64,000 nucleotides of DNA, taken from positions 149,918,001-149,982,000 of the forward strand of contig CM059431.1 in assembly GCA_030390025.1 (NCBI GenBank), read 5' to 3'. The position numbers and the translations under genes were made by a program. Below are positions 41,935 through 44,900 of the stretch, in pieces. Source of the stretch: Squalus acanthias. Taxonomy: Eukaryota. The notes under the pieces were generated by a model that saw only the letters and a list, made by a program, of their open reading frames with translations, was not told the DNA's origin and made no database searches. Position 1 is the first letter of the stretch; every line of letters starts with the position of its first letter.

Positions 41935-44900
41935 TCAAGCTATCACACTCCCTATCACTCTGGTGTGCTCCATGTGCTTATCCAATAACCGCTTGAAAGT
42001 TCCTAAAGTGTCCGACTCCACTATCACAGCAGGCAGTCCATTCCACATCCCAACCACTCTCTGAGTAAAGAATCTACCTCGGACATCCCTTCTATATCTC
42101 CCCCCATGCACCTTATAGTTATGCCCCCTTGTAACAGCTGCCTCTACCCGAGGAAATAGTCTCTGAAAATCCACTCTATCTATCCCCCTCATCATCTTAT
42201 AAACCTCTATTAAGTCGCCTCTCATCCTCCTCCGCTCTAAAGAGAAAAGCCCCAACTCCCTCAATCTTTCCTCATAAGACCTCCCCCCCAAATCAGGCAG
42301 CATCCTGGTAAATCTCCTTTGCACTCTTTCCAATGCTTCCACGTCCTTCCTATAGTGAGGTGACCAGAACTGCACACAATATTCCAAATGTGGTCTCACC
42401 AAGGTCCTGTACAGTTGCAGCATAACCTCACGGTTCTTAAACTCAAACCCTCTGTTAATAAACGCCAACACACCATAGGCCTTCTTTACTGCTCTATCCA
42501 CTTGAGTGGCAACCTTCAGAGATCTGTGGATATGAACCCCCAGATCCCTCTGCTCCTCCACGTTCCTCAGAACCCTGCCGTTGACCCTGTAATCCTTATT
42601 CAAATTTGACCTACCAAAATGAATCACCTCGCACTTATCAGGGTTAAATTCCATCTGCCATTTTTCGGCCCAGCTCTGCATCCTATCAATGTCTCTTTGC
42701 AGCCTACAACTGCCCTCCACCTCATCCACTACTCCAACAATCTTGGTGTCATCAGCAAATTTACTAATCCACCCTTCAGTCCCCTCCTCCAAGTCATTGA
42801 TAAAAATCACAAACAGCAGAGGACCCAGCACCGACCCCTGTGGCACACCGCTGGTAACTGGTCTCCAGTCCGAAAATGTTCCATCCACCACCACCCTCTG
42901 CCTTCTATGAGATAGCCAGTTACTTATCCAATCGGCCAAATTTCCCTCTATCCCACAACTCCTTTCTTTCTTCATGAGACGACCATGGGGAACCTTATCA
43001 AACGCCTTACTAAAATCCATGTATACGACATCAACTGCTCTACCTTCATCTACACACTTAGTTACCTCCTCAAAGAATTCAATCAAATTTGTTAGGCAAG
43101 ACTTACCCTTCACGAATCCGTGTTGACTATCCCTGATTAAGTTGCCCCTTTCCAAATGGTCATAAATCCTATCCCTCAGGACCTTTTCCATTATCTTACC
43201 AACCACCGAAGTAAGACTAACCGGCCTATAATTACCAGGGTCATTCCAATTTCCTTTCTTGAAGAGAGGAACAACATTCGCCACTCTCCAGTCCTCTGGC
43301 ACCATCCCCGTGGACAGTGAGGACCCAAAGATCAAAGCCAGAGGCTCTGCAATCTCCTCCCTTGCCTCCCAAAGAATCCTAGGATATATCCCATCTGGCC
43401 CAGGGGACTTATCGACCCTCAGGTTCTTCAAAATTGCTAAAACATCTTCCCTCAGAACATCTACCACCTCCAGCCTATCCACCTTTATCACACTCTCATC
43501 CTCAAGAACATGGCCCCTCTCCTCGGTGAACACTGACGAAAAGTATTCATTCATCACCTCTCCTATCTCTTCTGACTCCATGCACAAGTTCCCACTACTG
43601 TCCTTGACCGGCCCTACCCTCACCCTGGTCATTCTTTTATTTCTCACATAAGAGTAAAAAGCCTTGGGGTTTTTCTTGATCCGACCCGCCAAGGACTTCT
43701 CATGCCCCCTCCTAGCTCTCTTAAGCTCTTTTTTTAGCTCATTCCTTGCTACCTTGTACCCCTCAATCGACCCAACTGAACCTTGTTTTCTCAACCTTAC
43801 ATACGCTTCCTTTTTCCTCTTGACTAGACATTCAACCTCTTTTGTGAACCATGGTTCTCTCACTCGGCCATCTCCTCCCTGCCTGACAGGGACATACCTA
43901 TCAAGGACACGCAGTAATTGCTCCATGAAAAAGCTCCACTTTTCGTTTGTGCCTTTCCCTGATAGTTTCTGTTCCCATCTTATACTCCATAATTCTTGCC
44001 TCATCGCATCATAATTACCCCTCCCCCAATTATGAACCCTGCCCTGCCGTATGGCCCTATCCCTCTCCATTGCAATAGTGAAAGTTACCGAATTGTGGTT
44101 ACTATCTCCAAAGTGCTCTCCCACATACAAATCAAACACTTGGCCCGGTTCATTACCCAGTACCAAATCCAACGTGGCCCCACCTCTTGTCGGCCTATCC
44201 ACATATTGTGTCAGGAAACCCTCCTGCACACACTGTGCAAAAACTATCCCATCCGAACTGTTTGACCTATAAAGGTTCCAATCAATATTTGGAAAGTTGA
44301 AGTCACCCATGACAACTACTCTGTGACCTCCACACCTATTCATAATCTGCTTTGCAATTTCTTCCTCCACATCTTTATTACTATTTGGGGGCCTGTAGAA
44401 AACTCCTAACAACGTGACCGCTCCTTTCCTATTTCTAACTTCAGCCCATATTACCTCAGACGGCAGATCCCCCTCGAACTGCCTTTCTGCCGCTGTTAAA
44501 CTATCCTTGATTAACAATGCTACTCCTCCACCTTTCTTACCAACTTCCCTACTCTTACTGAAACATCTATACCCCGGAACTTCCAACAACCATTCCTGTC
44601 CCTGTTCTAACCATGTCTCCGTAATGGCCACCACATCGTATTCCCAAGTACCAATCCACGCTCCAAGTTCTCCCACCTTATTCCGGATGCTCCTTGCATT
44701 GAAGTAGACACACTTCAAGCCATCTTCCTGTCTGCCGGTACATTCATGCGACCTTGATACCCTCCTCAGTACCTCCCTACACTCACCACTGGCTCGTGGA
44801 CTACAGCCCTTTTTCCCATCCCCCTGACAAATTAGTTTAAACACCCCCGAAGAGCCGTAGCAAATTTCCCTCCCAGAATATTGGTGCCCCTCTGGTTCAG

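Follow-up and report, generated by a model that had tools for sequence, protein, structure and literature searches.

A two-ORF CR1 element and its ORF1/ORF2 junction

The window analyzed here is a stretch of 64,000 nucleotides from Squalus acanthias (contig CM059431.1, positions 149,918,001 to 149,982,000), and all positions below are counted from its first letter. Its minus strand carries, from about 45950 to 41851, an intact two-ORF LINE, which we take to be a CR1 element on the basis of its anatomy and of family traits rather than of a reverse transcriptase (RT) tree with named references. CR1-type families share a short 3' UTR that closes with an 8-nt microsatellite. The features on which the analysis draws are as follows.

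44832–45758, minus strand: CR1 ORF1, 308 aa, with its ATG at 45758 and ending in L-N-stop (sequence and domain search)
44835–44841, minus strand: slippery heptamer U_UUA_AAC, in the X_XXY_YYZ phase of ORF1; kept in relatives, or replaced there by GGGAAAC
44832–44834, minus strand: ORF1 stop TAA, directly 3' of the heptamer
44815–44824, minus strand: G-tract GGGGGATGGG, 11 nt past the heptamer, a candidate stimulator; register constant in 7 of 7 aligned junctions
44707–44831, minus strand: linker from the ORF1 stop to the endonuclease motif, with an unbroken -1 frame that holds no ATG
44341–44343, minus strand: first in-frame ATG of ORF2, in the endonuclease domain; codon 213 of the stop-to-stop frame
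41935–44841, minus strand: CR1 ORF2, 968 codons with the heptamer taken as its start
41851–41934, minus strand: short 3' UTR with a terminal 8-nt microsatellite (TCTATGTA units; repeat at 41870–41851), from sequence
54311–54336, plus strand: junction of an older, broken CR1 copy, with TTTATGT, TAG and an identical CAGGGGGATGGG

ORF1 begins with a CxxC..CxxC motif and ends with an SGNH/GDSL esterase domain (residues 144–291, PF13472). ORF2 encodes an endonuclease (residues 46–249, PF03372) and an RT (residues 529–769, PF00078), both exceeding the curated cut-offs, and the domain search of the element's ORFs showed no protease domain. The nearest named relatives of the ORF1 protein (ORF1p) belong to sharks and rays, with 72% likeness to that of Mustelus asterias, which points to an elasmobranch host, and named relatives with an esterase-type ORF1 come from sharks, rays, chimaera, penguin, lizards, and turtles. 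Two close relatives bear bacterial labels, namely P0006 (ORF1p; Pseudomonas aeruginosa) and P0219 (ORF2p; Carnobacterium maltaromaticum), and are likely host DNA inside bacterial assemblies.

The surroundings of the element are repetitive. CT-rich low-complexity arrays flank it (about 29300–35100, 40800–41850, 45950–48100, and 58700–63700) and are the source of many spurious ORFs. CR1-like ORF2 fragments that include no junction lie at 35139–36462, 59747–60592, and 48919–49095 on the minus strand and at 38695–40624, 361–1301, and 63753–63920 on the plus strand. In the older broken copy (52988–57239, plus strand), ORF1 is split by a CR1 ORF2 fragment at 53265–53782, possibly through nested insertion or rearrangement.

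The initial annotation had proposed that this element expresses its RT as a gag-pol-like fusion by a -1 ribosomal frameshift at the end of ORF1, and most of its reading of the junction was recovered in the sequence. ORF1 ends in GGG TGT TTA AAC TAA on the minus strand, and TTTAAAC at 44841–44835 stands in the X_XXY_YYZ phase of ORF1. ORF2 continues in the -1 frame with FKLICQGD and stays open to 41935; the last base of the heptamer and bases of the stop form CTA (Leu), the predicted first codon of the -1 frame. The G-rich block CAGGGGGATGGG, placed 9 nt downstream, starts at the ninth base past the heptamer and spans 12 nt (44826–44815). It does recur unchanged at 54325–54336 (plus strand) in the older copy, where the heptamer has decayed to TTTATGT. 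Two details required revision. ORF2 was said to lack an AUG for about 200 codons; the first in-frame ATG does lie inside the endonuclease, at a distance of 166 codons past the heptamer. The transframe peptides offered, GCFK.. and GCLK.., do not fit: the former is not expected from tRNA slippage, and the latter needs slippage of a single tRNA. Under two-tRNA slippage, the established model, the junction peptide would instead read ..GCLN-LICQGD. TTTAAAC occurs 7 times in the window, counting both strands together; a single copy is therefore weak evidence, and the case depends on relatives.

Variation within the window's family

Contigs from three DNA runs were aligned to 44640–45060 at 80% likeness. 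The contigs that are about 82% alike span 44814–44942 and carry many differences at 44843–44893, with none listed at 44814–44842, the stretch that comprises the G-tract, the stop, and the heptamer. This lack of variants is supporting evidence only, because three rows fall outside those listed and local alignments favor conserved ends. Compared with the long contigs, the window copy differs at 9–10 of 419 bases. The base at 44843 is private to the window copy, the three DNA runs carrying the other allele almost throughout, so that the family junction reads GGLN. None of the listed family variants introduces an in-frame ATG into the window's linker. No reads were placed from one RNA run (0 reads), a result that carries no weight for or against expression.

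Conservation of the junction in distant relatives

A metagenome scan yielded 29 loci. With the ORF1 end projected by tblastn, 9 of them extend to it and 20 do not. Eight loci resemble the penguin-labelled ORF1p P0068 and are termed bird-type here, a name taken from that resemblance alone. A canonical heptamer stands exactly at the ORF1 end in all 9 junction-reaching loci (8 TTTAAAC, 1 GGGAAAC). All 8 bird-type loci have TTTAAAC, followed by TAG in 7 and by AAG in L024, a deleted copy in which the stop is gone and the endonuclease is out of frame. The exception in heptamer is L001 (1644–1653, plus strand), a distant AT-rich relative that reads CAG GGA AAC TAG, hence GGGAAAC, with its G-tract shifted by 3 nt. 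At the position of the window's TAA, 8 of the 9 related junctions carry TAG. L024 was excluded from the 7 intact elements (the window and 6 loci), L003 and L009 stop short of the endonuclease, and L003, L007, and L009 were excluded from alignment A2. A search of viral contigs found no relatives, and the one match from GTDB, the bacterial esterase L030, was set aside.

The conservation of the heptamer exceeds what the encoded protein demands. Across 6 bird-type loci, a single codon is kept in 6 of 46 other same-residue columns and in 1 of 9 other Leu columns; the last two ORF1 codons are TTA AAC in 6 of 6 and in the window. The codon at -3 ends in T in all of these sequences while coding for Ser, Ala, or Cys, and TTA accounts for a fraction of 0.04–0.18 of Leu codons in the UUUAAAC elements counted. 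Conservation beyond coding need, by which the initial annotation had proposed to judge the heptamer, is thus borne out, with synonymous positions fixed and another canonical heptamer in L001. The G-tract behaves similarly: both of its Gly codons are GGG in 7 of 7 aligned junctions, against a GGG share of Gly codons of 0.26–0.39.

The reading frame downstream is equally constant. In each of the 7 intact elements, a linker without stops leads to the endonuclease in the -1 frame, the linkers measuring 38, 38, 38, 46, 52, 71, and 89 codons. In L001, the first ATG comes only after 63 codons, and a linker of this kind stayed open in 0.2% of shuffles. A stop in the -1 frame occurs 2–3 codons before the heptamer in 6 of 10 junctions, which leaves no entry from further upstream in these cases.

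As a side observation on ORF1, the esterase motifs GDS, GxND, and DxxH (44886–45329, minus strand, in the window) are kept in the window copy and in its shark relatives. The bird-type copies are without the His, which suggests from the sequence that catalysis was lost in that lineage.

Reinitiation as the main alternative

The rival that survives best is termination followed by reinitiation. Ribosomes would restart a few bases past the ORF1 stop, at an AUG or a non-AUG codon, and produce a free ORF2p as in L1 and SART1, while the heptamer and the G-tract would hold the post-termination ribosome. Precedents exist, as initiation of L1 ORF2 is described as AUG-independent (PMC5009743) and SART1 employs the stop-start sequence UAAUG (PMC3894237). 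An AUG at the 5' end of ORF2, named in the initial annotation as evidence against frameshifting, is indeed present in other families and absent in the window's own. An in-frame ATG precedes the endonuclease motif in each of the 6 intact relatives. For four of them (L002, L005, L006, and L007) it is codon 5, 2 nt past the stop; for L001 and L008 it lies farther on. However, the codon-5 ATG is missing in the window, L001, L003, L008, L009, and L024. The window element shows no AUG that overlaps or adjoins the ORF1 stop in the ORF2 frame, as a SART1-type stop-start would, and its family variants, as noted above, supply none in the linker. Reinitiation also predicts neither the X_XXY_YYZ covariation upstream of the stop, nor the switch to GGGAAAC, nor the fixed -1 frame. 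We consider it an improbable explanation of the junction, while reinitiation alongside frameshifting may occur in bird-type families. In L002, L005, L006, and L007, the ORF2-frame ATG adjoins an intact heptamer, and these families may have two routes to ORF2p.

Candidate stimulators and other RNA or DNA signals

Frameshift signals of the classical subtype place a stable pseudoknot or stem-loop 5–9 nt downstream of the slippery site, and no such structure was found here with tools that are blind to pseudoknots. Four window segments folded no better than shuffled sequences (z-scores 0.0 to +1.4), and no consensus pairs emerged across the 7 aligned junctions. Quadruplex prediction returned none in the window copy and one in each of 2 of the 8 junctions folded. 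C-rich partners are scarce downstream of the heptamer. In L002 a hairpin lies about 28 nt downstream; it is not shared by the consensus and was discarded. The best long-range partners of the G-tract, ranked without a shuffle control, lie in C-rich ORF1 coding sequence at about -545 in the window, at -650 to -680 in three bird-type loci, and elsewhere in others; we make no claim of long-range pairing. The adjacent stop and the G-tract are left as conserved candidate stimulators on comparative grounds.

The same conservation invites a second alternative, namely that the motif is some other RNA or DNA element, such as a packaging protein site, a splice acceptor, or a 3' processing signal, that happens to resemble a slippery site. 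Synonymous positions of the G-tract are conserved, the tract has survived the decay of the heptamer in the old copy, and the window junction TTTGTCAG/G resembles a splice acceptor. Nevertheless, the bird-type junctions have no pyrimidine run before AG, and the splice acceptor was rejected for want of conservation. In a binding site, one would not expect the three X bases to switch jointly in the codon phase of ORF1, and the differing places of the G-tract's best partners from locus to locus likewise speak against such an element. We regard this alternative as very improbable.

The C-terminal signature of ORF1 proteins

The heptamer leaves a trace in protein sequences. An esterase-domain profile was compared with 1.84 billion cluster representatives (50% clusters), and the best 150 were examined; 99 of these end near the projected ORF1 end, and the other 51 were left out. 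The 99 ends comprise 52 L-N, 12 G-N, 3 K-N, and 32 others, and L-N, G-N, and K-N are the products of U_UUA_AAC, G_GGA_AAC, and A_AAA_AAC, respectively. Terminal tripeptides fit the pattern N NX/XXY/YYZ in 67 of 99 cases, compared with 500 of 12571 internal tripeptides (4.0%); in 32 of the 99, the terminus is not slip-compatible. Residue -3 follows the heptamer as well. Among L-N ends, 13 have a residue encoded only by NNY codons and 1 only by NNR codons, and among G-N ends the counts are 0 and 9 (Fisher p 1.2e-5, a value that overstates independence because the rows are related). In the L-N ends, NNR-only residues number 16 at -4 and 17 at -5.

Among 46 non-terminal cases, taken from a wider end window, a compatible tripeptide lies near the projected end in 28, against 29% expected, and is missing in 18; the compatible ones are often K-N, G-F, or F-F before a short tail. 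We infer the GN, KN, and GF heptamers, that of L001 aside, from protein sequence. In a quick tree built with the tails omitted, the end classes cluster, with at least 5 switches on 76 labelled rows and at least 3 on 62 terminal rows. Named L-N ends belong to sharks, rays, penguin, lizards, and turtles, and the chimaera protein ends in LNY. The implied heptamers are the four listed as most shifty by Atkins 2016 (PMC5009743). Judged from these sequences, distant relatives seem to exchange the slippery signal only for another of its best-known forms.

A constraint on the ORF1p C-terminus itself, in the form of a terminal Asn combined with chance codon choice, would account for the 71 of 99 ORF1p ends that are Asn, including 4 EN or SN ends unfit for a heptamer, but is scarcely credible, given that synonymous codons are fixed, that the alternating penultimate Leu, Gly, and Lys share XXA codons rather than chemistry, and that a separate clade also has K-N, some 10 residues short of the end.

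A proposed -1 frameshift

Programmed -1 ribosomal frameshifting at the conserved U_UUA_AAC remains the best explanation. On the strength of the comparative evidence, this CR1 LINE probably makes its endonuclease and RT as an ORF1p–ORF2p fusion, and the gag-pol-like expression suggested in the initial annotation gains support accordingly from its relatives. The junction displays sequence features of a -1 frameshift signal, with X_XXY_YYZ in the zero-frame phase, an open -1 ORF, and conservation beyond coding in which changes preserve the pattern.

Under frameshifting, termination with release of the 308-aa ORF1p would be the outcome for most ribosomes. In a minority, the Leu- and Asn-tRNAs paired with UUA AAC would move back onto UUU AAA, and CUA would be read next. 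These ribosomes would pass through the linker and yield a predicted protein of 1274 aa with the junction ..LN-LICQGD. Such a slip would set a high ORF1p:ORF2p ratio and keep the enzyme attached to the ORF1p particle. The least supported step is the source of the pause, which could be slow decoding of the adjacent stop, a protein-bound G-tract at +11, or both; because no local RNA fold was found, the pause is more likely to come from the stop and/or the G-tract. Since no protease domain was seen, the fusion may stay uncut.

Weak searches found no full-length natural ORF1p–ORF2p fusion family, and none of 21 ORF2 matches was an esterase–APE–RT protein, itself a weak test. Three partial gene models (P0039, P0070, and P0073) pass at FKL..QG.G from the ORF1 esterase to the ORF2 frame and are probably single-copy indels or model artefacts.

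A broader proposal is offered more tentatively, and we lean slightly against it when it is taken as a whole. Esterase-type CR1 LINEs of jawed vertebrates and of more distant hosts may share a gag-pol-like ORF2 fusion produced by a -1 slip and kept since before the shark/bird split, with at least 5 switches among the four strongest heptamers. The slip would be independent of any RNA fold and driven by the stop and a protein-bound G-tract.

Relation to known systems

No repeat of the chicken genome is more abundant than CR1 (PMC11835228), and LINE ORF2 translation has been called an open question, the worked animal examples using reinitiation (PMC3894237, PMC5009743). No report of CR1 frameshifting was found in the literature searched, which left out most subscription papers, two founding CR1 papers among them, and CR1 as a whole word has 0 matches in the first two-thirds of the frameshifting review PMC5009743. 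If the proposal holds, the CR1 enzyme is a fusion of about 1270 aa that carries ORF1p, which would change the annotation of intact CR1 copies and the judging of their activity. The junction would also provide a natural -1 signal of 30 nt that may need no pseudoknot.

As a category, frameshifting in an APE-type LINE is not new. According to a review legend citing Marschalek 1992, the Dictyostelium elements TRE5-A and TRE3-A depend on a -1 frameshift for ORF2 (PMC5911963); the passages on these elements name no animal LINE case and state neither a measured slip nor a heptamer. Like CR1, both are non-LTR retrotransposons of the APE type that have two ORFs, the second encoding APE and RT, but their host kingdom and their ORF1 are different. 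The earlier view that studied LINEs use reinitiation or coupling stands for L1 and SART1, whereas the implied absence of frameshifting from LINEs was too strong. Human L1 and silkworm SART1 resemble CR1 in having a bicistronic LINE RNA and a low ORF2p output. They rely on unconventional initiation or stop-start coupling and produce free ORF2p, in contrast to this CR1 junction, where no AUG is present and the overlap is in the -1 frame.

Close parallels in layout are coronavirus ORF1a/1b and retroviral gag-pol, which join a structural ORF to a polymerase ORF that lies in the -1 frame. U_UUA_AAC is the site of the coronavirus IBV (PMC5009743), in agreement with the initial annotation. These signals have a downstream pseudoknot or stem-loop, whereas none was found at the CR1 junction. 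Other viral signals show what could take its place: pea enation mosaic virus needs a stop just 3' of the shift site, and at the arterivirus nsp2 site stimulation comes from a protein complex with PCBP rather than from a fold (PMC5009743). In CR1 the stop follows the heptamer immediately and a G-rich motif lies downstream, and by analogy with these two viruses, stop- or protein-assisted stimulation may operate at the CR1 junction.
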